DNA from: Candidatus Obscuribacterales bacterium
GTDB lineage: Bacteria > Cyanobacteriota > Vampirovibrionia > Obscuribacterales > Obscuribacteraceae
Assembly (NCBI GenBank): GCA_965228855.1
Contig: CBDDIJ010000005.1
Location: forward strand, 1,024,001-1,088,000
Length of the DNA: 64,000 nt
Reading direction: 5' to 3'
Of this stretch, positions 8,710 through 25,581 are shown one piece after another (position 1 is the first letter of the stretch; the number at the start of each line of letters is the position of its first letter). The translations under genes and the position numbers were made by a program. The notes under the pieces were generated by a model, which saw only the letters and a program-made list of their open reading frames with translations, ran no database searches and was not told where the DNA came from.

Positions 8710-10269
8710 TCAAACAGTGACGACAGGTCTAAACTTGCCGAATGCTGTCTTCAAAGTCTTACTGATCTCACCGACGGTGGCATAGGCTTCCACCGCCTCG
8801 AGAATAAACGGCATCAAATTGTCGGTTCCCTGAGCAGCAGCCAGCAGCTTGGCAAGCGACTCTTCGACTCTGGCATTGTCGCGAGTTTCTTTTACTCGCT
8901 TCAAATCACGCACCTGCTCTTCTTCCAGCTTTGGATCGACTCGTAAAAGTGGAATCGACGGATCATCAGCATCGATGAAATCGTTGACGCCGACAACGAT
9001 TTGCTCTTTCGACTCCACGGCTTTGTGATACTCGTAGGCCGAATTCTGAATCTCTTTTTGAATGAAACCGCTCTCGACAGCTTGAATTGCACCGCCCATA
9101 TCTTCAATGCGTTTGAGATAGACTCGAACGTCTTTCTCGATTTGATCGGTGAGACTCTCGACGTAATAAGAGCCGCCAAAGGGGTCTACGACATTAGTCA
9201 CACCAGTTTCAAACGCGATAATTTGCTGCGTTCTCAGCGCCGTCAGGGCTGACGCCTCGCTTGGCAGTGAAAGCGCTTCGTCTTTTGAATTCGTATGCAA
9301 CGATTGAGTTCCGCCAATAACTGCAGCCAGAGCCTCGACAGCAGTGCGAACGATGTTGTTGTCCGGTTGCTGTTGGGTCAGGGAACTGCCGGCGGTTTGA
9401 GTGTGAAAGCGCAACATCAGCGACTTTGGATCTTGAGCGTTGAAACGGTCTTTCATGATGCTCGCCCAGATGCGGCGCGCCGCGCGGAACTTCGCGACTT
9501 CCTCGAAGAAATTCATTTGAGCAACGAAGAAGAAGCTGAGCTGAGGCGCAAATTCATCGACGGACAAACCGCGAGAAATTGCCGCCTCTACATATTGAAT
9601 CGCGTTGGCGAAAGTGAACGCCAGCTCTTGAGTCGCAGTAGCACCAGCTTCCCTGATGTGATACCCGGAGATGGAAATCGTATTCCACTTCGGCATTTCT
9701 TTCGCGCAAAATTCGAAGATGTCGCAAATCAGACGCATTGAGCCGGTCGGCGGGAAGATGTATGTGTTTCTAGCTTCGTACTCTTTGAGAATGTCGTTTT
9801 GAATCGTGCCGTTGAGCAACTTCGGATCGACGCCTTGTTTCTTGCCTACCGCGCGATACATAGCAAGAAGGATCGAGCTGGTCGCGTTGATGGTCATCGA
9901 GGTTGAAACCTTCGAAAGGTCGATCTGGTCGAAGAGTTTTTCCATATCGGCGAGTGTATCGATAGCCACTCCGGTGCGTCCTACTTCGCCAAACGCCATC
10001 GGGTCGTCGCTGTCGATGCCCATCTGAGTCGGCAGATCGAACGCCGTCGACAAACCGGTCTGCCCGTTACCTAATAGATATCTAAACCTTTTGTTGGTTT
10101 CGGTAGCGTTTCCGAAGCCCGCGTACTGCCTCATGGTCCACACGCGAGAGCGGTACATGTTGTCATATATACCGCGCGTGTATGGGTATTGGCCTGGCTT
10201 TCCAAGCTTCTCGTCCTGTTCCCAAGAGCTCAGGTCTTCTGGTCGATAGAGGTTTTTATCAGTGGTCAT
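8710..10269 (-). CDS. Methylmalonyl-CoA mutase, large (substrate-binding) subunit lacking the B12-binding domain
   Basis: [18 protein letters not shown] (Tyr specificity residue), [46 protein letters not shown]. No DxHxxG domain. Confidence 0.93.
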
Positions 10270-10395
10270 GCCGGTTGCGCGAGTTGTGTATTTGAGTGGG
10301 ATGCGTGCCAAATCAAGGTTTTCATAACGTTTTAAGACGGCTGTCACCGTATAATGAGGACGCTTTGCATATATTGTACGGGAGGTTCACCCCTG

Positions 10396-11808
10396 GTGAA
10401 GTACTACGAGAATATTCTTGAAACGATTGGCTCGACACCGCTGATTAAAATCAACAAAATAGCTAGCGGTGTGAAACCTTTGATCCTTGCAAAGATGGAG
10501 CCGTTCAATCCAGGTGGATCGGTTAAGGACCGTCCAGCCAAACGCATGATCGAAGAGGCCGAGAAAGCAGGATTGCTGAAGCCAGGCGGCACGATCATCG
10601 AACCGACGTCGGGTAATACCGGCACAGGATTGGCACAATTAGCCGCAGTCCGCGGATATCGCTGTATTCTCGTCTGTCCGGACAAAGTTGCCAGCGAAAA
10701 GATTAATCTGCTGAAAGCCTATGGGGCGGAAGTAGTAATTGTTCCCACTTCGGTTTCGGCAAGCTCGCACGAGAGCTACTACTCGGTAGCCAATAAGCTG
10801 ACGATGGAAATTCCAGGCGCATTCCAGCCCAATCAGTTTGGAAACCCAAACAATCCCATGGCTCACACATTGAGCACCGGTCCCGAGATCTGGGAAGCAA
10901 CAGGCGGAAAAATCACCGCATTCGTAGCCGGCATCGGTACCGGTGGCACCATATCCGGTACCGCTCGTTACCTGAAAGAGATGAATCCGAAGATCAGAAT
11001 CATCGGAGCAGACCCGGAAGGTTCAATTTATTCCGGCGATATGCCTAAGAGTTATAAGGTCGAAGGAATCGGCGAAGACTTCATCCCAAGCAACGCAGAT
11101 CTTAAGATCGTAGACGAAGTAGTTCGCGTCTCCGACAAGGATTCGTTCACGATGGCGCGCAGAATGGCTCGTGAAGAGGGTCTTCTGGTCGGCGGTTCTT
11201 CTGGAACAGCCATGACGGCAGCACTGAAAGCGGCGGAAACGATGACATCCGACGATGTAATTGTCGTTCTCATACCGGATGGCGGCAGAGGTTACTTGAG
11301 CAAAATCTATTCAGATGAGTGGATGGGCAACAACGGTTTCCTCCCCTCGCCCGGGCACAGCTACTATGTAAACGACCTGATGATGCGCAAAGCGGATCGA
11401 GGCAAGTTCCCACCTTTGATTACTGTAAGACCGGAAGATTCGATCAAGCAAGCGATCGAACTCATGGAAGAACATCACATCGACCAGCTTCCCGTGTGTA
11501 CCCAAACTGGACAGAACGTCGGTCATATAAACGATGTGGTAGCCATGCAAGTAGTTTACGAACGCAAGGACCCTGAAAAAGTGCACGTCAGCGACGTCAT
11601 GGGCAAACCGTTCCCTCAACTCGATCTGCATCACGAGATCGACGAATTGTACAAAACCTTCAGACTCGGCAACGCCATGGTCGTCATAACGGACCATGAT
11701 AAAGCTTGCGGCGTCTTAACTCGCTTCGACATCATGTCGCACTTGCGGGAAACGATGAGCAACGATAAAGGTGCGCCTGAGACAAAATCAAAAGCAGGAG
11801 TTAAGTAA
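10396..11808 (+). CDS. cbs: Cystathionine beta-synthase with C-terminal CBS domains
   Basis: NPGGSVKDR PLP lysine, EPTSGNTG, GTGGT, Y-x-VEGIG, C-terminal CBS pair. GGAGG RBS before GTG at 10396. Confidence 0.88.
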   Translation: MKYYENILETIGSTPLIKINKIASGVKPLILAKMEPFNPGGSVKDRPAKRMIEEAEKAGLLKPGGTIIEPTSGNTGTGLAQLAAVRGYRCILVCPDKVASEKINLLKAYGAEVVIVPTSVSASSHESYYSVANKLTMEIPGAFQPNQFGNPNNPMAHTLSTGPEIWEATGGKITAFVAGIGTGGTISGTARYLKEMNPKIRIIGADPEGSIYSGDMPKSYKVEGIGEDFIPSNADLKIVDEVVRVSDKDSFTMARRMAREEGLLVGGSSGTAMTAALKAAETMTSDDVIVVLIPDGGRGYLSKIYSDEWMGNNGFLPSPGHSYYVNDLMMRKADRGKFPPLITVRPEDSIKQAIELMEEHHIDQLPVCTQTGQNVGHINDVVAMQVVYERKDPEKVHVSDVMGKPFPQLDLHHEIDELYKTFRLGNAMVVITDHDKACGVLTRFDIMSHLRETMSNDKGAPETKSKAGVK

Positions 11809-12972
11809 ATGAAATTTGCTACCAGAGCCATCCACGCTGGACAGGAGCCGGATCCGACAACCGGAGCGATTAACGTTCCAATCTACCAAACATCTACTTA
11901 CGTACAGCAAGAGATCGGCAAGCATAAGGGTTACGAATACGCCCGTACAGGCAACCCGACAAGAACAGCCCTGGAAGCCTGCCTGGCATCACTGGAAGGC
12001 GCGAAGCACGGGTTGTGTTTCGGTTCCGGATTGGGCGCATCGATGAACATCATGCACCTGCTCTCCGCTGGAGATCATGTGGTCGTCGGAGACGACGTCT
12101 ACGGCGGCACTTTCCGTCTTTTCGATAAAGTGCTTTCTCGCTTCGGAGTAACCTTCTCATGGGTAGATGCACGCGACGTCAAAAACATTGAAAAAGCAAT
12201 CAAGCCTGAAACCAAAATGATCTGGTTGGAAACGCCTACCAATCCGCTTCTTCAAATCATCGACATCAAAGCGATTACCGATTTGGCAAAGAGCAAGAAG
12301 ATCGCCACGGTCGTCGACAATACCTTCGCCAGCCCATATCTTCAGAACCCGCTTGCTCTGGGCGCCGACATCGTCGTCCACAGCGCGACCAAATATCTCG
12401 GCGGTCACAGTGATGTCGTAGGCGGTGCCATCCTGACCAGCGACGAAGAGATGTACGAGCGTCTCAAGTTCCACCAGAACGCGGTCGGTTCAGTACCTGG
12501 CCCTATGGATTGCTTCTTGATTCTTCGAGGAGTGAAAACGCTTGCAGTTCGCATGGAAGCGCACCAGAAGAATGCAATGGCGATCGCAAAATTTCTCGAG
12601 AACAAACCGCAAATAGAGCGCATCATTTATCCCGGCTTGGCGGCACATCCGCAGCACGATCTCGCGAAAAAGCAGATGAGCGGTTTTGGTGCGATGGTTT
12701 CCATCGTCGTAAAAGGCGGATTGGAAAACGCAAACAAATTCGCTTCGTCAACAAAACTCTTCGCCCTTGCCGAAAGTCTTGGCGGCGTTGAGTCCCTCAT
12801 TTGTCACCCGGTATCAATGACTCACGGCTCCATTCCCAAAGAAGTTCGTGAAGCTAGAGGAATCGTCGATGGCTTGGTTCGACTCTCGGTCGGTATCGAA
12901 GACACTGATGATTTGCTAGCAGACGTGGAACAAGCACTCGCAAAGGTTCCACAGCTGACCGAAGCGAAGTAG
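11809..12972 (+). CDS. Cystathionine gamma-lyase / gamma-synthase family PLP enzyme
   Basis: YARTGNPT, ETPTNP, VDNTF, HSATKYLGGHSD, AESLGGVES, RLSVGIE. Abuts cbs. Confidence 0.93.
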   Translation: MKFATRAIHAGQEPDPTTGAINVPIYQTSTYVQQEIGKHKGYEYARTGNPTRTALEACLASLEGAKHGLCFGSGLGASMNIMHLLSAGDHVVVGDDVYGGTFRLFDKVLSRFGVTFSWVDARDVKNIEKAIKPETKMIWLETPTNPLLQIIDIKAITDLAKSKKIATVVDNTFASPYLQNPLALGADIVVHSATKYLGGHSDVVGGAILTSDEEMYERLKFHQNAVGSVPGPMDCFLILRGVKTLAVRMEAHQKNAMAIAKFLENKPQIERIIYPGLAAHPQHDLAKKQMSGFGAMVSIVVKGGLENANKFASSTKLFALAESLGGVESLICHPVSMTHGSIPKEVREARGIVDGLVRLSVGIEDTDDLLADVEQALAKVPQLTEAK

Positions 12973-15905: not shown

Positions 15906-16802
15906 TTATGAAGGTTGCAGTTTTTCAAATTCCCGTGGCGCAAGCTGTTGGCGCGCGAGTTCCAAAACGGAATGTGCGCGTTCCGAACAACCTGCTCGAC
16001 GTGCAGCATTTATGAATAAGCTAAACGATTCCGCGTCGCTCGCCACTGCGAAAACCTTTCGCACGAATTCATCAGCGACAAAGTCCCGATTTAGACCCAG
16101 ACTCGCTTCGAAAAGAAGTGCAGCATCACCCACAAGATCAGCACGACAATTATCCACATAAGACGAAAGCGCCTTATCCAGAGAGCCTGGAAATAAAACG
16201 CTGCTTTCAACTTCGACCCACATTCTCAGGAACTGAAGTCCCAACTTATCAAAGTAGGGTTCAATTCGCTGGTATTTCTTTTGACTTAGATATCTATCCA
16301 GGCTATGTCGCACAACAACTAGAGAATGGGATAACGTCATCTGACTGTCGCTATTCGCACTTCTCATCTTCTCGAGAAGAACCAAGTCCGGTTCTTCCTC
16401 TCCGAGAGCAAGGCTCAGGGCCAGCCACTCTTCTATTACCGCATGCGATTGAAAACCGCCGACAATTTTTTCCGCAAGTTCATCACGAAGGTTGTTTAAT
16501 GACTCCCTTGCAGCCGGATAACGTTCTAGCAGAACCGTCAAGCACGACTCCAAAGCCAGATCTTGCATGTTACCAACGGAACCTGTTAGAGATGAGAGGT
16601 AGAGTTCAAGTGCCCTCTCGTACTCTCCTGCCTCGACAAACTGGCGGGCTTTGAAGAGCTTCTCCAATTTAGCTGAAATTTTTTGCAGCCCTGTCGTCGT
16701 TCTCTCGCGCGGCACCATATCATCCTCAACGTATAACTGTCTCAACATATATCGACTATCATTGCACCTAGTCGTGTACTTATTGTGAGCCGACCGCCCC
16801 AA
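15906..16802 (-). CDS. Hypothetical helical (TPR-like) protein; true start probably downstream of 16802
   Basis: 298-aa ORF with helical-repeat composition, convergent on the DUF6745-like gene. Confidence 0.6.
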   Translation of the reverse strand: MGRSAHNKYTTRCNDSRYMLRQLYVEDDMVPRERTTTGLQKISAKLEKLFKARQFVEAGEYERALELYLSSLTGSVGNMQDLALESCLTVLLERYPAARESLNNLRDELAEKIVGGFQSHAVIEEWLALSLALGEEEPDLVLLEKMRSANSDSQMTLSHSLVVVRHSLDRYLSQKKYQRIEPYFDKLGLQFLRMWVEVESSVLFPGSLDKALSSYVDNCRADLVGDAALLFEASLGLNRDFVADEFVRKVFAVASDAESFSLFINAARRAGCSERAHSVLELARQQLAPREFEKLQPS

Positions 16803-16876
16803 GCGTTAATGACTGTCAGCGACACAAGCAGCTTCGTCACAAGTCGATCGCGAGAAAATAAGGATTCGATCAGCAT

Positions 16877-16897
16877 CGGTTAACAACACCTTAACCG
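16877..16897. promoter_or_regulatory. Perfect 7-7-7 inverted repeat, operator-like
   Basis: CGGTTAA-caacacc-TTAACCG in the divergent intergenic region upstream of the small ORF and MNIO locus. Confidence 0.4.
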
Positions 16898-16918
16898 TGC
16901 AAATGATAATTTAGTGGC

Positions 16919-17032
16919 ATGAAAAATCAAGAATACGAGTTGAAGAGAAACCGACCAAGGCAAACGAGAAGCCTTCCAGAAAGCCAATCGAGTTTATACC
17001 AGAACGTCCAGCCCGAACAATTTAGTCCGTAA
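16919..17032 (+). CDS. Putative 37-aa small ORF (leader or standalone peptide)
   Basis: ATG..TAA: MKNQEYELKRNRPRQTRSLPESQSSLYQNVQPEQFSP, immediately followed by a terminator. Weak RBS. Confidence 0.3.
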   Translation: MKNQEYELKRNRPRQTRSLPESQSSLYQNVQPEQFSP

Positions 17033-17036
17033 TTCC

Positions 17037-17060
17037 AACCGCCGTTCGAGGCGGTTTTTT
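17037..17060 (+). terminator. Intrinsic terminator upstream of the TIGR04222 gene
   Basis: AACCGCC-gttcga-GGCGGTT followed by a T tract. Confidence 0.7.
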
Positions 17061-17144
17061 GTTTCCAGAATAGCCCGTTATCAAAGGGCAAAAAGTAATA
17101 CAGATTTCCAAGCCGCACCGCATCTGGTGTCGCAGGAGGTACAC

Positions 17145-18026
17145 ATGTTCTTTTTTGAAATTTCAGGTCCAGAGTTCCTGTTATGGTACGTGGTCTTTAT
17201 GGCGGTCTCTCTGATTGCCGCGCATGTAGCGAGAGCCAGCATCCTGCACGTTTCCACAAAAGATGTACCTGACGGTGAGATAGATGAATACGATATTGCT
17301 TACTTGAATGGCGGCGCGGAGCAGGTGTTCTTCAGCGCTATCGCAACTCTCGTTGAATGTGGCACAGTGGAACTCGATAATAAAGAACGAAAGCTGACAA
17401 TAAAAGACAACCAAATGAAAAAACAGCTTCACGTTGTAGAACAGAATTTAGTCAATACAATTCACTGGGGTCAAGCAGCGACTGTAGACAAACTATTTGA
17501 TCGGTTTAAACCCGCCACGGAAAAACTGAAAAGTCGATTGCAATCTATGGACCTGGTTGCAGGCGGAGATCGAGAAGTATTTGTAACCGCAATTCCGATG
17601 ATGATTCTAATGGCTCTGCCAATCGGACTCGGAATTCCCAGGTTGCTTAACGGGCTCTATCACAACCGCCCAGTATCATTTTTGCTTATCCTTCTTCTTG
17701 TTTCCTTCGTGATGATCCTGATGAGCGTGCTCAACAAAAATAAGAGAACCACTCTCGGTGACGAGGCTCTGCGAATACTTCAAAAGGATCACGCATCTCT
17801 GAGAGCAAACTTCAGCACCTGCAGACACACGCTTAAACCGCAAGATATTACCCTGGCGTACGCTCTGTTCGGCGGGGTTCTGGGCGGCGCCTTAATCAGC
17901 ACGCTGGACCCGTTTAACGCCGCAAAAGCTGCGATGCACCCGCCTGTATCCGGTGGCGGCGGAGGATGCGGAAGCAGTTGCGGCGGGGGATGTGGTGGCG
18001 GATGCGGTGGCGGTTGCGGAGGCTAA
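17145..18026 (+). CDS. TIGR04222-domain membrane protein with C-terminal Gly/Cys tail
   Basis: GPEFLLWY, YDIAYLNGG, GIPRLLNGLYHNRPVSFL, RTTLG motifs; ends GGGGGCGSSCGGGCGGGCGGGCGG. AGGAGG RBS. Confidence 0.88.
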   Translation: MFFFEISGPEFLLWYVVFMAVSLIAAHVARASILHVSTKDVPDGEIDEYDIAYLNGGAEQVFFSAIATLVECGTVELDNKERKLTIKDNQMKKQLHVVEQNLVNTIHWGQAATVDKLFDRFKPATEKLKSRLQSMDLVAGGDREVFVTAIPMMILMALPIGLGIPRLLNGLYHNRPVSFLLILLLVSFVMILMSVLNKNKRTTLGDEALRILQKDHASLRANFSTCRHTLKPQDITLAYALFGGVLGGALISTLDPFNAAKAAMHPPVSGGGGGCGSSCGGGCGGGCGGGCGG

Positions 18027-18087
18027 AGGAACGAAGATATCGTTTACAACCACAGTATTAATCAGTTGAGATTCTAGAGTAAGGCAC

Positions 18088-18984
18088 ATGAACAACAGAC
18101 ATACAAAACTGGGAATAGGCTGGAGACCAGAAATAGCGGTAGCAATCGAGCGCCGCAAAGACCTCGATTTCGTTGAAGTACTCTTCGAGAATTTGGTTGG
18201 AAGAGAAATTCCACAAGCTTTGCTAAACCTTCGAGAACGCGGCATTACGATAATTCCCCACGCGGTGTCTCTGTCATTGGGTGGCGCCGAAAGACCGAAC
18301 GCCATAAAACTGAAACAGTTCAATAGAATGGCAAAAGCGGTTGATGCCCCCTTCGTGAGCGAACACATAGCATTTGTTCGCGCTGGAGGCAAGGAGTCTG
18401 GACATCTCCTGCCCGTGCCGAGAACAAAAGGCGCGCTCAAAGTTCTCGTTGAAAACATAAGCATCGCGAAGGAGCACCTGACGGTTCCACTCGTTCTCGA
18501 AAACATAGCGATGCTCTTCAACTGGAACAATTCCGAGATGGACGAAGCGGAGTTCATCACAGAGGTTCTAGAGCAAAGCGGTTGTCTGATGCTTCTTGAC
18601 GTAGCGAACCTTTATGCTAACTCTCTTAATCACAAGTTCAACGCAGTGGAGTTTCTGAAGAAACTTCCGCTGGACAAGGTCGCATATGTTCATACAGCCG
18701 GCGGCGTACTAACTAAGGGCATCTATCACGACACACATGCGCACCCGGTTGTTGATGACGTCCACTCGTTACTCGCAGAGCTGATGAAACTGAATGCGCC
18801 ACCACGAGTGATGCTCGAACGCGACGATAACTTTCCCGGCGAAGAGGCTCTTAATAACGAGCTTGATAGTATCGCAGCCATAATTCAGGGAGGCAATAAC
18901 CATGAGTACTTACAGACAAGAGTTGGAAGCGCAGCAGGAACAGCTTATAAACGCGCTCCTGAATTTAGCCGCGGCACCTTCTGA
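18088..18984 (+). CDS. DUF692 family multinuclear non-heme iron-dependent oxidative enzyme (MNIO)
   Basis: GIGWRPE, EVLFEN, HAVSLSLGG, SEHIAF, GHLLP, LENI, LLDVANLYAN, YVHTAGG, HDTHAH, MLERDD metal-ligand motifs. Confidence 0.93.
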   Translation: MNNRHTKLGIGWRPEIAVAIERRKDLDFVEVLFENLVGREIPQALLNLRERGITIIPHAVSLSLGGAERPNAIKLKQFNRMAKAVDAPFVSEHIAFVRAGGKESGHLLPVPRTKGALKVLVENISIAKEHLTVPLVLENIAMLFNWNNSEMDEAEFITEVLEQSGCLMLLDVANLYANSLNHKFNAVEFLKKLPLDKVAYVHTAGGVLTKGIYHDTHAHPVVDDVHSLLAELMKLNAPPRVMLERDDNFPGEEALNNELDSIAAIIQGGNNHEYLQTRVGSAAGTAYKRAPEFSRGTF

Positions 18985-19219
18985 GGTAGATGCAGAACAA
19001 GTTCTCTGTTGCGCTCTAACGTTAAGAAACAAGCGTGCGCGCGTACTGAATAAACTTTCAGGCAGCAATGATGACTGTTGCGGCTCCAGAAGTGAAGAGA
19101 TGGAAGCTTATTTTAAACGTTATCCGGGAGTTCATCCCGACGGAGGATATGCTGACCTGAGGCGCTACAAGCGTTTCCTCGCAATCCGTCGAATTAAAGC
19201 GCGATTCGGTTTATTCTAG
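18902..19219 (+). CDS. Small putative MNIO partner protein
   Basis: GGAGG RBS; LEAQQEQLINALL...LRNKR...YFKRYP...GGYAD resembles the C-terminal partner domain fused to some actinobacterial DUF692 proteins. Overlaps the MNIO gene by 83 nt. Confidence 0.65.
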   Translation: MSTYRQELEAQQEQLINALLNLAAAPSEVDAEQVLCCALTLRNKRARVLNKLSGSNDDCCGSRSEEMEAYFKRYPGVHPDGGYADLRRYKRFLAIRRIKARFGLF

Positions 19220-20103
19220 CGACTGCGAACTTTGGCGTTGACGGCCGTTTTCGTGATGCGCTGTGAGTAATTCTCAACTGGTGCGATTCTGCTGTAAGGC
19301 GCATAGCTGGCAGCCACGGTAGGCTCCAAAAGTTTAGCTTCAGCATTCTTTGCGATCAACTGTGCATCGACTCCACGCGCAGCAAGCTGGGCGGTGCATT
19401 CTTTCTGAGCCAATTGTCCGTTTACCGCTCTTGTTGCGGAGTTATTCAATCTGTTAGGTGATGCGTTGAGTTCCGCTTGAGCCGGATTGATTTTCGCCAT
19501 CAAATTCTTGCGACGAAGCTCGGCCTCCACTGCAGTGGTGGGCTCATGTTGGCCGCCGGGCGGGATTAAGCGGCCCATTGTGTCTCTATTCGAGAGTTGC
19601 GGTGCCACGTGTTTATAACCAATTGAAGTGTTGGTGCTGCGAAGGGTCGGAGCAACGTGTTTGTAAGCGATTTGTGTTCCAGTGCTGCGATGCGGTGCGA
19701 TTTGGGTCGGTTTCTTATAGACGCTTGGTCTTGCTTGAACCGGTTTATAAAGGTAATTTTTGCTGTCTATCGCAGTCTGATTTTTCTTCGACTTAGATGC
19801 GACCTCATGCTTCTTACCTCTAGAAGTCAGGCATTGTCGCGGGGGCGGCGGCGGACCGACGAGCCTCGTGCCCTGAACATTCGCATATATGGGATTCCAA
19901 TGGTAGTGCCGGAGGTTGGGATTGGACTTCAGGATATTGTTTTCCCAGTTTCTAATTTCGACGCAACCTACCGTCGCGCGAACCGGTCTCAATTCACCCC
20001 GGCGGGCAGCCTCGGCTTTCTGACCACCAACGAGCGCCAGAATTATAAAAACTGCCATAGCCAAGCCCTTGCGGGTGTTTTGGGAAGCGAAAACCATAAC
20101 CAC
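19216..20103 (-). CDS. Secreted basic hypothetical protein with short internal repeats
   Basis: Hydrophobic signal ending AEA; repeats YKHVAP and AVxG/AxL. Confidence 0.65.
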   Translation of the reverse strand: MVMVFASQNTRKGLAMAVFIILALVGGQKAEAARRGELRPVRATVGCVEIRNWENNILKSNPNLRHYHWNPIYANVQGTRLVGPPPPPRQCLTSRGKKHEVASKSKKNQTAIDSKNYLYKPVQARPSVYKKPTQIAPHRSTGTQIAYKHVAPTLRSTNTSIGYKHVAPQLSNRDTMGRLIPPGGQHEPTTAVEAELRRKNLMAKINPAQAELNASPNRLNNSATRAVNGQLAQKECTAQLAARGVDAQLIAKNAEAKLLEPTVAASYAPYSRIAPVENYSQRITKTAVNAKVRSR

Positions 20104-20444
20104 CTCTTGCTATAAACTTTATAGCTTTTTCCCAAGACGTCGACTATGGGGAGATTACCATCGCTGGAACCGTTTATGAAACACTGCTCAAATGCAGTCA
20201 GCGCAAGCCTTTGGGAAATAATGACCGGGGCAAATCATGACAAATTCTTCTGATATTCCCGATATACGGCGGTTTTCGGCAAAAAATGTACCTACTTATA
20301 CCTAAATCCGCCAGATTTGAAAGGTAACGATTGTCATTACCAAGCCTTTTGATGTGTGAATGTCTGTGTCAGAATGCCATCGGAATCCTGAAGCGTGGCA
20401 AATTGCGCATTTTATCGGCTTCCCTCTTAAGAAAATCAGATCTC

Positions 20445-21368
20445 ATGAATTCAAGACTGACACGGAGAAGAGTTAATACCCTCGGGGTTTTAACCGCTGC
20501 CGCGGCAGCACTGCTAACGTTGAACGCTTGCAGCAAGGATACGAATTCCGACCCTAGAAATCTAACGCCAATGGTTTCTATAGAGGGATCGGACACGATG
20601 AGCGTTCTGCTCACCAAATGGGCGACTGCGTTCATGAAGGACAACCACGACATCCCGGTCTCCGTCACCGTCGCAGATTCCGGTGCAGGCTTGAAAGCTC
20701 TTCTGGACCGCAGAACAGACATTGCGGCCTCATCACGAGATCTCACAAATGAGGAAAACGAGACAGTACACAGCAAGGGCATGCACCTGGTGCGCCGAAT
20801 CGTCGCATTGGACTCAATCGCTGTCATCGTGAATCCGCAATCAGAGCTCACCGAAATTGCTTTACCGGAATTGCGCAAGGTTTTTGCGGGCACCATCAGC
20901 GACTGGTCGCAGCTCGACAGCAAACTGAAAGGCGACATCGTCGTTTGTGTGAGAGAGCCGGAGTCAGGCACCTCTAATTACTTTAGAGAACATGCACTAA
21001 AGTCGCCAAAGGAGCCCAAAGAGACCGCCCCGACTGAATACTCGAAAAACGCAGTTATCTTGAACTCGAACGACGCCCTGATCGGAGCGATTGCAACCAA
21101 CAAAAGCGCAATCGGTTTCCTTCCATATAGCGATGCTAGAAGTGCGACAGATAAGGTCAAATCGCTAAAAGTTAAACTGATGGCATCTTCGCCGGACGCG
21201 GTTGCGCCGACTCTGTCAGCAACAACGGATGACTACTCGCTGAGCCGACCGCTTTATATGTTCTTCGACTCGAAGTCAAAACCGTCGACCAAGAAATTCG
21301 TCGATTTCTGCCTCAGCGACAAGGGACAGGCGATCGTAAAAGAGCACGGATTCGTCAAGCTGAAGTAG
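20445..21368 (+). CDS. pstS: Phosphate ABC transporter substrate-binding lipoprotein
   Basis: Lipobox LNAC; IEGSDTM, DSGAG, DIAASSR, VALDSIAVIVNP, REPESGT, YSLSRPLY. Confidence 0.85.
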   Translation: MNSRLTRRRVNTLGVLTAAAAALLTLNACSKDTNSDPRNLTPMVSIEGSDTMSVLLTKWATAFMKDNHDIPVSVTVADSGAGLKALLDRRTDIAASSRDLTNEENETVHSKGMHLVRRIVALDSIAVIVNPQSELTEIALPELRKVFAGTISDWSQLDSKLKGDIVVCVREPESGTSNYFREHALKSPKEPKETAPTEYSKNAVILNSNDALIGAIATNKSAIGFLPYSDARSATDKVKSLKVKLMASSPDAVAPTLSATTDDYSLSRPLYMFFDSKSKPSTKKFVDFCLSDKGQAIVKEHGFVKLK

Positions 21369-21891: not shown

Positions 21892-24800
21892 TTGTCGCGC
21901 AAAAATTTTCTAGACCGACTCAAAGAAAAAGTCCTCATTTTCGATGGGGCAATGGGAACGTCGATTCATAAATATGATCTGACCCTCGATGATTACGCGG
22001 GTCTGGAAAACTGTCCGGAGATTCTCGTCGAGAGCCGCCCTGACGTGATCCGCGAGATCCACGGCTCGTTCTACAACGTAGGCTGCGATGTAGTCGAGAC
22101 TAATACGTTTGGCGGAACCCCGATCGTCCTTGCAGAGTTCGGGATTGCAGAACGCGCCTATGAATTGAACAAGAAAGCAGCGGAACTCGCACGAGCAGTG
22201 GCGGAAGACTATTCAGCGGGCGGTCAGCAGCGTTATGTTTCCGGCTCGATAGGTCCGACAACTAAGCTTCCCTCGCTAGGTCACATAAGCTTTGCGGATA
22301 TGCGGGATGCCTATTACGAACAGGTGCGCGGTCTCGTTGATGGTGGCGTGGACGCGCTGCAGTTTGAAACCGGTCAAGATTTACTACAGGCAAAAGCCGC
22401 AGTTATAGCCATGCTCGATTACTTCAAGGTGATCGGGCGCAAAGTTCCGATCATCGTTCAAGTAACTATCGAAGCGCCTCCACTAGGCACCATGCTAGTT
22501 GGCTCAGACATCAGCTGCGCGCTGACGACTATGTCGGCATTTCCGATTGACGTAATCGGAATAAACTGTGCGACTGGTCCGAGTGAAATGCTCGATCCGA
22601 TACATTATCTGTGCAACAACACGGATAAACTCGTGTCAGTACTGCCGAACGCTGGATTGCCTGAAAACGTTGATGGTCAAACGGTTTATAAACTAACTCC
22701 GGATGAACTTGCAACAGCGCTCAAGCACTTCGTGGTTAACGATGGTGTCAACATCGTTGGTGGCTGTTGTGGTACCACTCCGGACCACCTGGCGCGAGTG
22801 GTGGAAGTGATTGGAAATGCCGCGCCGAAAAAGCGCGAACCCATTTACACACCAGCTGCAGCCAGCATCTACACAAGCGTTCCATTTGAAATGGATCAGC
22901 CGCCCTTGATTGTTGGTGAAAGAACCAACACCAATGGCAGCCGCAAATTCAAACAGCTTTTGCAAAAGGAAGATTGGGACGGAATGGTCTCGATGGGTCG
23001 TGAGCAAGAGCGCGAAGGCGCGCATGTGCTGGACGTTTGCACAGCATATGTCGGTCGCGACGAAATCCGCGATATGAATACGCTGATTAAGCGTTTAAAC
23101 ACAGAATTACAAATTCCGATAGTGATAGACACCACCGAGTATCCCGTTCTTGCCTCAGCGTTAGAACGCATAGCCGGCAAGCCCATAGTTAATTCCATAA
23201 ACTTGGAAGATGGCGTCGACAGTATGATGCGCAAGGTTGGTCTGATAACTCGCTTCGGCGCAGCCACTGTCGCGCTGACTATCGACGAAGATGGTATGGC
23301 GAAAACAGCAGATCGAAAAGTCGAGATTGCCAAACGCATTCACGATCTGGCTGTTGAAGCGGGTCTTCCAGCACACGATATAATTTTCGACGCTCTGACG
23401 TTTACTCTTTCGACTGGAAATGAAGAGGATCGCAAGCTCGGTTTGGAAACCCTGAAGGCGATCAAGATGATTAAGGAGCAACTGCCGGGAGTAAAAACTA
23501 TTCTCGGCGTGAGCAATATATCGTTCGGTTTCGATCCGATTATCAGGCAAACCTTAAACTCCGTTTTCCTCCACTATGCCGTTGAATACGGGCTGGATAT
23601 GGCGATCGTGAACGCTCAAAAAATCTTGCCGTTATTCAAAATCAACGAAGAAGAGCGCGAGTTTCACCGCAAACTTATCTTTGACGAACGCACTGAAAGC
23701 TACGATCCACTATTCGCGTTGCTCGATTACTACAAGGCGAAGACTGCATCGGAAGCCAGTGAAACCAAAGTTGTTCAGCACAGAGAAATCGAAGACGTCC
23801 TGAAGAACCGCATCATCGACGGCAATCGTGTCGGTTTGGAAAAGGATCTGGATAAGGCGCTTGAGAAATACGCGGCGCTAGAGATCATCAACAACATTTT
23901 GCTGGACGGTATGAAGGTCGTCGGAGACCTGTTCGGCAGCGGTAAGATGCAGTTGCCGTTCGTACTGCAATCAGCAGAGACGATGAAGGCTGCGGTAGCG
24001 TATTTGGAACCTCATATGGAAAAGGTCGAAGGCGCGAACCGCGGAACCATGGTGCTCGCCACGGTCAAAGGTGACGTTCACGATATTGGTAAAAACCTCG
24101 TCGACATTATCCTTTCGAACAATGGCTACAAGGTTGTAAACCTCGGCATTAAACAACCAATTGAAAACATAATTGCAGCAGCACTGGAGCACAAAGCCGA
24201 TTGCATAGGCATGAGCGGTTTGCTCGTAAAGTCAACAGTCATCATGAAAGAGAATCTGGACGTGCTGAACCAGCGCGGAATAAAGGTTCCCGTTATTCTC
24301 GGCGGCGCGGCTCTAACGAGACGTTACGTCGAATTCGACTGCAGGCAGAACTATCGAGGTCTGACCTTCTACGGTCAGGATGCCTTCGACGATTTGAAGA
24401 TCATGGAAGCGCTGCACGCGTTACGCACAGCTCAAGACAAGCTGGGTGGATTATCAGAGGAAGAGTTGCTGGCGCAAGTACACGGAACTTCAGGACTGTC
24501 TACAGCACATCCGGAAGAAGACGAAGCGACCGAAGAAGCGTTAAGCGATGGAACCGGCGCCGGAGAAGCCAGAATGCTCGAAGACGATGACGCCAGTGAC
24601 GAATCGCTCGACGAGCAAACTGCAGCTCGAATAATAGAGGGCAAACAGAAAGCACCTAGTTGCGCACGCGTGTCAAAATCTGGCATTGCAGGTGGTGCCA
24701 ATGGCGGCTCCAGTGAACGCGAAAACACGACTCGTTCCGACGTGTCTCGAACGATCGACGTCCCAAATCCGCCTTTCTGGGGTTCCAAGATCGTTGATGA

Positions 24801-25581
24801 CGTGCCTCTTTCAGAGGTGTTCGAGTATATCAACCAGATGGTTTTGTTTAAGGGACAGTGGCGAGTCCGGCAAGGACACACGCCCAAAGTCGAATACGAC
24901 AAAATGATCAACGAAAAATTCGTTCCAATTTATGAGGAACTGAAACAGCGCTGCATAGAGCAAAAATTGCTAATTCCGCGAGCGGTCTACGGATACTTCC
25001 CTTGCCGTTCCGAGAAAAACGACTTGATTGTCTACAAGGAAGACCAGAAAACGGAGTGGCTGCGTTTCCATTTTCCAAGACAAAACCATGGAAGAGGTCT
25101 CTGCATCTCTGATTTCTTCAAGTCAACGGACGAAGGGCAGTTTGACATATTGCCACTACAGGTAGTGACCATGGGGTCACGCGCGAGTGAGTACGCGCAG
25201 GAGTTATTTGCGCAAGACAAATACACGGACTACTTATACTTCCATGGGCTATCAGTAGAGTCGGCAGAGGGTCTAGCGGAAGTTATACACAAGAGAATCC
25301 GCGCGGAACTCGGCTTCGCCGGAGACGACGCAAAGAATAAAATGCAATTGTTCCAGCAAGGTTATCGGGGCACACGCTACAGCTTCGGCTACCCAGCTTG
25401 CCCGAATCTGGAAGATCAGCGGCAGCTGTTTGAGCTATTACAACCGGAACGGGTAGGTATTCAACTCACCGAGGAGTTTCAGCTCGTGCCCGAACAAAGC
25501 ACTTCTGCAGTTGTAGTTCACCACCCGGAAGCAAAATATTTCAATATAACTACGAGTAAAAAACCAGTCGCAGTGGAGTAA
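21892..25581 (+). CDS. metH: Cobalamin-dependent methionine synthase
   Basis: DGAMGT, GINCATG, GGCCGT (Zn), VGERTN pterin domain, KGDVHDIGKN B12 motif, RYSFGYPACP reactivation domain. Confidence 0.97.
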   Translation: MSRKNFLDRLKEKVLIFDGAMGTSIHKYDLTLDDYAGLENCPEILVESRPDVIREIHGSFYNVGCDVVETNTFGGTPIVLAEFGIAERAYELNKKAAELARAVAEDYSAGGQQRYVSGSIGPTTKLPSLGHISFADMRDAYYEQVRGLVDGGVDALQFETGQDLLQAKAAVIAMLDYFKVIGRKVPIIVQVTIEAPPLGTMLVGSDISCALTTMSAFPIDVIGINCATGPSEMLDPIHYLCNNTDKLVSVLPNAGLPENVDGQTVYKLTPDELATALKHFVVNDGVNIVGGCCGTTPDHLARVVEVIGNAAPKKREPIYTPAAASIYTSVPFEMDQPPLIVGERTNTNGSRKFKQLLQKEDWDGMVSMGREQEREGAHVLDVCTAYVGRDEIRDMNTLIKRLNTELQIPIVIDTTEYPVLASALERIAGKPIVNSINLEDGVDSMMRKVGLITRFGAATVALTIDEDGMAKTADRKVEIAKRIHDLAVEAGLPAHDIIFDALTFTLSTGNEEDRKLGLETLKAIKMIKEQLPGVKTILGVSNISFGFDPIIRQTLNSVFLHYAVEYGLDMAIVNAQKILPLFKINEEEREFHRKLIFDERTESYDPLFALLDYYKAKTASEASETKVVQHREIEDVLKNRIIDGNRVGLEKDLDKALEKYAALEIINNILLDGMKVVGDLFGSGKMQLPFVLQSAETMKAAVAYLEPHMEKVEGANRGTMVLATVKGDVHDIGKNLVDIILSNNGYKVVNLGIKQPIENIIAAALEHKADCIGMSGLLVKSTVIMKENLDVLNQRGIKVPVILGGAALTRRYVEFDCRQNYRGLTFYGQDAFDDLKIMEALHALRTAQDKLGGLSEEELLAQVHGTSGLSTAHPEEDEATEEALSDGTGAGEARMLEDDDASDESLDEQTAARIIEGKQKAPSCARVSKSGIAGGANGGSSERENTTRSDVSRTIDVPNPPFWGSKIVDDVPLSEVFEYINQMVLFKGQWRVRQGHTPKVEYDKMINEKFVPIYEELKQRCIEQKLLIPRAVYGYFPCRSEKNDLIVYKEDQKTEWLRFHFPRQNHGRGLCISDFFKSTDEGQFDILPLQVVTMGSRASEYAQELFAQDKYTDYLYFHGLSVESAEGLAEVIHKRIRAELGFAGDDAKNKMQLFQQGYRGTRYSFGYPACPNLEDQRQLFELLQPERVGIQLTEEFQLVPEQSTSAVVVHHPEAKYFNITTSKKPVAVE

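Follow-up and report, generated by a model that had tools for sequence, protein, structure and literature searches.

A TIGR04222 membrane protein with a cysteine-glycine tail as the candidate substrate of a linked MNIO in Obscuribacterales

What does an MNIO (DUF692) enzyme act on where no cysteine-containing precursor peptide is encoded beside it? The MNIO products described in the literature consulted are soluble or secreted peptides. In the Obscuribacterales genome studied here, an MNIO gene follows that of an integral membrane protein ending in regularly spaced cysteines; we analysed this locus within a window of 64,000 nucleotides, to which coordinates refer unless a locus or contig is named. 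The gene pairing and the hypothesis that the tail is the substrate are already in print, as the available part of PMC12452194 makes clear. New here are the argument on membrane topology, the strict linkage within the family, the observation that MNIO and UCP032817 domain exclude each other, and the promoter.

Gene layout and the upstream region

The three co-oriented genes of the initial annotation were re-found at the same positions, all on the plus strand. ORF 1 (17145–18026) encodes a TIGR04222 membrane protein of 293 residues, ORF 2 (18088–18984) the MNIO and ORF 3 (18902–19219) a small partner-like protein. AGGAGG precedes the ATG of ORF 1, the MNIO gene starts 61 nt downstream of the TIGR04222 gene, and ORF 3 overlaps the end of the MNIO gene by 83 nt. 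A scan of 16780–20340 gave no plausible free cysteine-containing peptide, only two antisense ORFs over cassette genes, and so upheld the earlier remark that no such precursor lies nearby.

The closest related locus is 99% identical. Elsewhere the layout varies: loci of the Pyrinomonadaceae type (L014–L017, L020) carry one or two genes for zinc-ribbon membrane proteins between MNIO and partner, and within the Obscuribacteraceae family a nucleotidyltransferase gene lies upstream only in the group L010–L012/L078. A nucleotidyltransferase was considered as a core part of the cassette and rejected, as none was found in the genome studied. The TIGR04222 gene appears split across reading frames in L060/L076 (G088) and in L013 (G252), where the MNIO also appears split, by assembly error or decay. 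Within 10 kb of the cassette, at 8710–12972 and 21892–25581, lie genes that we take to be methylmalonyl-CoA mutase-, cystathionine synthase/lyase- and B12 methionine synthase-like. These neighbours were not seen in the inspected neighbourhoods of relatives, except in the nearest strain.

Family-wide motif comparison revealed a promoter-like element upstream of the cassette (16880–16912, plus strand), consisting of a TTAAC-N5-CTTAA direct repeat with an 11-bp period and a TAnnnT −10 hexamer 27 nt from the start of the first repeat. The hexamer stands at +27 in 29 of 35 upstream regions and at +26 in one more, and among 9 independent loci that had been held out, 7 show repeat and −10 element together. 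Scored with a matrix trained without it, the element tied for the highest score genome-wide; column-shuffled matrices gave 0–3 matches at that score. Its CTTAACCT-type 11-bp repeats, set some 10 bp ahead of the −10 hexamer as in the SphR/PhoB box of the Pho regulon, resemble the CTTAACCT repeats of the cyanobacterial Pho box (PMC1906773, available in part). From this Pho-box/OmpR-type geometry we infer an OmpR-type activator, which could not be named because the genome holds 46 OmpR-type domain matches.

Membership of the Pho regulon was considered and rejected, as the phosphate genes lack the box. The only pstS-like gene of the genome, which encodes an orphan binding protein (20331–21368), has no box; PstB gave no match at E ≤ 1e-60 in this 95% complete genome, and the 15 other pattern matches in 14 genomes were followed by no recognisable pst gene. 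Over these genomes the pattern matched 28 times, against 34 for a reversed-pattern control, and 13 of the 28 are the cassette itself. In several family genomes the same repeat motif precedes genes for membrane peptides of 44–45 residues, SPFH-adjacent small ORFs and DUF3592 genes (sites G000:C3:3758082, minus strand, and L193; G000:C3:1850736, minus strand, L178 and L198; L187 and L196). These sites may form a small regulon, the total matches being not above the control. As to expression, the one sequencing run labelled as RNA is probably of DNA.

A cysteine-free, apparently leaderless ORF of 37 codons (16919–17032, plus strand) begins where transcription would start. An intrinsic-terminator-like hairpin with a T run (17037–17063, plus strand) separates it from the cassette; neither feature was part of the initial annotation, which did not cover 16919–17063. 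Similar ORFs of 37–47 residues occur at same-genus loci, and in L006–L009 and L066 a similar hairpin comes after the leader ORF; the order of promoter, cysteine-free leader ORF and terminator is thus found in the genus, while ORF and terminator are missing from most of the family. A promoter, short ORF and terminator ahead of enzyme genes recall the layout of a precursor gene, and the presence of similar ORFs in the genus adds to the likeness, so that the 37-residue peptide might itself be the true substrate of some non-cysteine chemistry. This seems to us highly improbable: the peptide has no cysteine, and its ORF has shrunk to a bare ATG-stop in two loci and is absent from most of 30 leaders, whereas enzyme and tail are always there. 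The 37-codon ORF is probably a leader and not a substrate. A riboswitch or other known RNA in this region was likewise rejected, with no Rfam match at E ≤ 5 and folding no better than that of shuffled sequences (z −1.3).

The MNIO and its small partner

The ORF 2 product matches PF05114 with 268 bits and aligns to 3bww, TglH and MbnB; its iron site is assigned from this alignment together with established knowledge. All nine MNIO metal-site residues are present, and an alignment of 36 clade members shows no variation at H58, H93, E138, D171, N174, H202, D215, H217, E244 or D246, which bears out the earlier description of an MNIO with intact metal ligands. By motif, N174, D215 and H217 correspond to the HvfB site-3 residues N175, D242 and H244, and D246 is paired, by motif only, with the catalytic Asp249 of FonB. 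The best characterised matches are the BufB and HvfB models, with scores below their cut-offs (199.8 against 310 and 182.3 against 360, respectively). As these scores fall so far short, the chemistry may differ from that of BufB and HvfB.

In the MNIO tree, from which 8 near-duplicate rows were removed before building, the 26 rows of Obscuribacterales type form one starred branch (100/99). The three other MNIOs of the genome fall outside this TIGR04222-linked clade. Two of them have full DUF2063 partners and short cysteine-containing precursors with signal peptides upstream; judged from their sequences, ordinary bufferin-like systems exist separately in the same genome. At these bufferin-like loci, L002 (G000:C5:54103-57888) and L003 (G000:C2:1431694-1435479), both with DUF2063-type partners, one precursor has a signal peptide and repeated EGSCKGK units and the other has 7 cysteines. 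The fourth MNIO (L005:325-2428) is divergent and is followed by a very short ORF. Upstream of it lies a 323-residue signal-peptide protein with a cysteine-containing tail (...CGMG), possibly another protein substrate.

Domain profile searches gave no direct family match for the 105-residue product of ORF 3. Its relatives were more informative: PF26136, which we take to be the SCO6045-like C-terminal domain, is present in 8 of 9 homologues, and DUF2063 is matched by 5 of 17 aligned relatives. The structure model of the partner (pLDDT 90.5) consists of four helices and no strands. Compared with 48,161 chains, it placed MbnC at rank 1 (Z 5.0, rmsd 4.1, 80 aligned), NGO1945 at rank 8 (Z 4.1) and TglI at rank 16 (Z 3.8), where Z scores of 3.8–5.0 are weak and only the N-terminal helical parts of the three proteins align. 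They are the three solved MNIO partners named in the literature consulted. A sequence search of solved structures and a Foldseek search returned nothing for the partner. Taken together, relatives and modelled fold support the earlier call of a small partner-like protein, and they identify it, at the level of sequence and model, as a four-helix, DUF2063-like partner of PME-type 2 without an RRE domain.

The cysteine-glycine tail, its membrane side and its genomic linkage

The ORF 1 product matches TIGR04222 with 100.7 bits (cut-off 43). Its Gly/Ser/Cys tail (17952–18023, plus strand) reads, just as first described, GGGGG-C-GSS-C-GGG-C-GGG-C-GGG-C-GG, with five Cys-Gly dyads and cysteines 275, 279, 283, 287 and 291 spaced by four within the last 19 residues. 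No second C-terminus of this kind was found among the 19,942 stop-to-stop segments of 100 or more residues in the genome. The tail is disordered in the structure model (pLDDT <60). It is retained although the identity of the membrane domain falls to 24–50%. At least three tail cysteines are present in 55 of 55 MNIO-adjacent loci, which were picked by a tail-free model, and in all 120 listed homologues, a set biased by a search query that included the tail. CGG ends 38 of the 55 MNIO-linked tails. Glycine or serine follows cysteine in 335 of 347 cases in MNIO-linked tails, a pattern that fits the preference of FonB for a small residue after cysteine (PMC13097082, available in part), versus 65 of 68 cases in unlinked ones. 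Because the unlinked tails show the same bias, the dyad reads as permissive, not diagnostic, for modification by an MNIO.

Less could be said of the soluble domain of the TIGR04222 protein. Foldseek returned no match for its fold at E ≤ 0.001, and the matches of a VIA search with the TIGR04222 model were all generic three-helix bundles that cover the membrane helices, the three long helices of the model aligning to them. An Atlas search gave a sub-0.9 DUF2207_C lead. A GPP34/GOLPH3 fold was also considered, with no evidence for or against it from these searches.

Whether a cytoplasmic MNIO could reach the tail depends on membrane topology. Three transmembrane helices are predicted at residues ~8–34, 141–172 and 178–196, with the N-terminus outside and the C-terminus inside, and they reach a KD of 1.6 in 90, 95 and 96 of 97 homologues. 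Lysine and arginine in the flanks point to the side of domain and tail as cytoplasmic in 97 of 97 (means 8.6 vs 2.5). Among long fusions without a signal peptide, 15 of 21 carry an extra helix ahead of helix 1, and in the DUF2207-type homologues L159 (which scores above the TIGR04222 cut-off), L161 and L134 an apparent signal peptide is joined by three more segments, a fourth being absent. Since charge bias, folded model and both fusion types agree, it is likely that the tail faces the cytoplasm and the N-terminus lies outside. The initial annotation had made its proposal depend on such access, and these predictions place the tail on the required side. In several UCP032817-TIGR04222 fusions (P0079, P0080, P0100, P0106, P0107, L141 and L145) the extra helix ends, just before the TIGR04222 start, in L-x-x-G-C, which we presume to resemble a lipobox.

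A periplasmic tail, modified by the MNIO before translocation, is what Antoine et al. (2025; PMC12452194, available in part) proposed with their topology prediction, and bufferins do act outside the cytoplasm. In this TIGR04222 protein a borderline fourth hydrophobic stretch (KD 1.66, Hessa sum 1.8) matches helix 2 in hydrophobicity, the corresponding stretch reaches transmembrane hydrophobicity (KD 1.6) in 51 of 97 homologues, and the short loop that we place outside holds about two Lys/Arg. The model (pLDDT 88.6), however, turns the fourth stretch into a helix of only 11 residues with a break at Gly-Gly. With the uniform charge bias, the extra helix of the fusions and the three further segments of the DUF2207-type homologues also against it, we consider a periplasmic end point unlikely. 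A cytoplasmic tail, as predicted, would need no modification before export and would open the soluble C-terminal region to a direct test.

Genomic linkage provides the second line of evidence. Of 72 genomes from the same family, 34 contain TIGR04222 (33 over cut-off); among 178 genomes from elsewhere in the class, a single one does. A clade-MNIO profile, built from TIGR04222-adjacent MNIOs, matches 44 of 104 family genomes, and a TIGR04222 gene stands directly upstream in 44 of 44, of which 42 were inspected and two (G104, G224) read from coordinates. Given how the profile was built, only 9 of the 44 were not already part of the analysis, and related genomes do not count as independent. Conversely, the clade MNIO is present in all 33–34 family genomes with an over-cut-off TIGR04222. 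The co-occurrence check proposed at the outset therefore came out in favour of the pairing, the clade MNIO never being found without a tailed TIGR04222 protein. MNIO, partner and TIGR04222 form a tightly conserved cassette in this family.

Beyond the family the picture is more varied. Two further phylum samples of 251 genomes each were used, with loci picked by a tail-free TIGR04222 model. The 69 loci counted are the over-cut-off ones, minus frameshifted L013, the tail-less DUF2207-type L159 and below-cut-off G248, from sampling without Actinomycetota, the main hosts in print. No claim made here depends on the unpublished genome G278. An adjacent MNIO is present at 55 loci, a UCP032817/GRDP-like domain, fused or adjacent, at 10, neither at 4 and both at none. 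All 14 loci without an adjacent MNIO keep tails of 2–7 cysteines, and 12 of the 14 genomes have no PF05114 match by a first-look filter on incomplete genomes. One of the four loci with neither, L122, has a nucleotidyltransferase and a radical SAM enzyme. The UCP032817 domain is His-rich, with an invariant Glu, Asp and four His; a profile of its fusions found no meaningful solved relative, and the Obscuribacterales genome studied contains no such domain. At L079:755-2492 (G037), in a genome without an MNIO match, a stand-alone GRDP-like gene lies head-to-head with a Cys-tailed TIGR04222 gene, an arrangement that reads as a split form of the fusion.

These MNIO-less tails allow two readings, one in which the tail functions without any modification and one in which it is modified by different enzymes. 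On the first, the bare Cys-Gly tail would be a working metal or Fe-S ligand, with the MNIO acting elsewhere or dispensable. Besides the 12 MNIO-less genomes, L153 speaks for this, as it keeps the tail beside what appears to be the decayed start of an MNIO (no Pfam match). The one-to-one linkage in the family speaks against it, as do the want of any other candidate substrate nearby and the enzymes found where the MNIO is missing, UCP032817 at 10 of the 14 loci and the nucleotidyltransferase and radical SAM pair of L122, which may be substitute maturases. We accordingly rate an unmodified tail as a doubtful explanation. On the second reading, the tail would be a portable module that MNIO, radical SAM or UCP032817/GRDP-like maturases convert into a cytoplasm-facing tethered heterocycle array, an idea that we put forward as speculative and rather unlikely in this general form. 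If true, the GRDP/DUF1399 domain would be a self-modifying metalloenzyme, in plant GRDP proteins as well; the exclusion between MNIO and GRDP-like domain offers a testable hypothesis on the enzymatic role of a domain that plants also possess.

For the locus itself, we propose that the MNIO, as an iron enzyme, and its small partner would oxidise the five tail cysteines of the TIGR04222 protein, probably to 5-thiooxazole rings, once the protein has been inserted into the membrane. Because the helper has no RRE, the folded cytoplasmic domain could stand in for a leader peptide. Expression of the cassette would be induced through the OmpR-type regulator, and the modified tail would stay tethered at the cytoplasmic face of the membrane and bind metal there. 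We hold this proposal, modification to a membrane-tethered, metal-binding array, to be the most probable of the explanations considered, with about even odds of being right. The earlier suggestion of the tail as MNIO substrate thus stands in part: strict linkage and predicted access favour it, and the persistence of tails in 12 of 14 genomes without an MNIO counts against it.

The initial annotation had also allowed for release of a peptide by cleavage, in which case the modified tail would be excised to give a free RiPP and the membrane domain would be only a long leader. The tail does resemble Gly-rich RiPP cores, and a flexible Ser/Gly linker precedes it. Nevertheless, the inspected neighbourhoods contain no conserved peptidase or exporter, alignment A1 has no conserved cleavage motif, and related DUF2207 proteins have a Cys-free Gly/Ser tail at the same place, so that the release suggestion was not borne out and we regard it as improbable. 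A tethered product, if confirmed, would extend RiPP chemistry to membrane proteins, give a function to the large unexplained TIGR04222 family, with more than 3,500 proteins in PMC12452194, and make TIGR04222 the first integral membrane MNIO substrate found in print.

Comparison with known systems

Plant GRDP proteins share the tail motif. They combine DUF1399 with a Gly-rich tail interspersed with cysteines, in the motif [CG]GGGCGG[GC] (PMC4299439, available in part), and a His-rich domain related to theirs is fused to MNIO-less TIGR04222 proteins, although it is absent from the genome studied. No enzymatic activity of the GRDP domain was found in the available part of PMC4299439. DUF2207 (YciQ-like) membrane proteins are weakly homologous in the soluble domain and the helix hairpin, and some have a Gly/Ser-rich C-terminus; unlike the TIGR04222 protein, they carry a signal peptide as well as a large external domain, and they have neither tail cysteines nor an MNIO.

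The bufferins and captophorins (BufABC, HvfABC, FonABC; PMC13097082 and PMC11626156, both available in part) share with the present system the metal-site residues and the repeated cysteine followed by a small residue. According to PMC13097082, enzymes of the BufB/HvfB type form 5-thiooxazoles, and FonB requires a small residue after cysteine. In these systems the modified substrates are secreted peptides that bear Sec signals, and the partners are DUF2063-RRE proteins, whereas the candidate substrate here is an integral membrane protein and the partner has no RRE. The MNIO stays below the BufB and HvfB cut-offs, and the locus contains neither a free Sec-signal precursor nor a partner combining DUF2063 with an RRE.

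The closest counterparts are the TIGR04222-MNIO clusters with PME-type 2 partners described in silico by Antoine et al. (2025), who proposed the tail as substrate and, in the available part of PMC12452194, left its modification to be investigated. Our literature search, with most subscription papers outside its reach, found no experimental test of this modification, and the spreadsheet supplements of that paper make no mention of the host lineage. Gene order, the Cys/Gly/Ser tail and the short DUF2063-like partner without a full RRE are the same in both. The locus has a TIGR04222 protein over the cut-off, a C-proximal Cys-rich segment, an adjacent MNIO and a downstream DUF2063-like partner that escapes the Pfam signature. 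Two differences stand out. Domain and tail are predicted to be periplasmic in PMC12452194 and cytoplasmic here, and the linkage is reported there as loose overall, whereas it is strict in the family examined here. PMC12452194 also counts 490 of 1,372 TIGR04222 genomes as lacking an MNIO.
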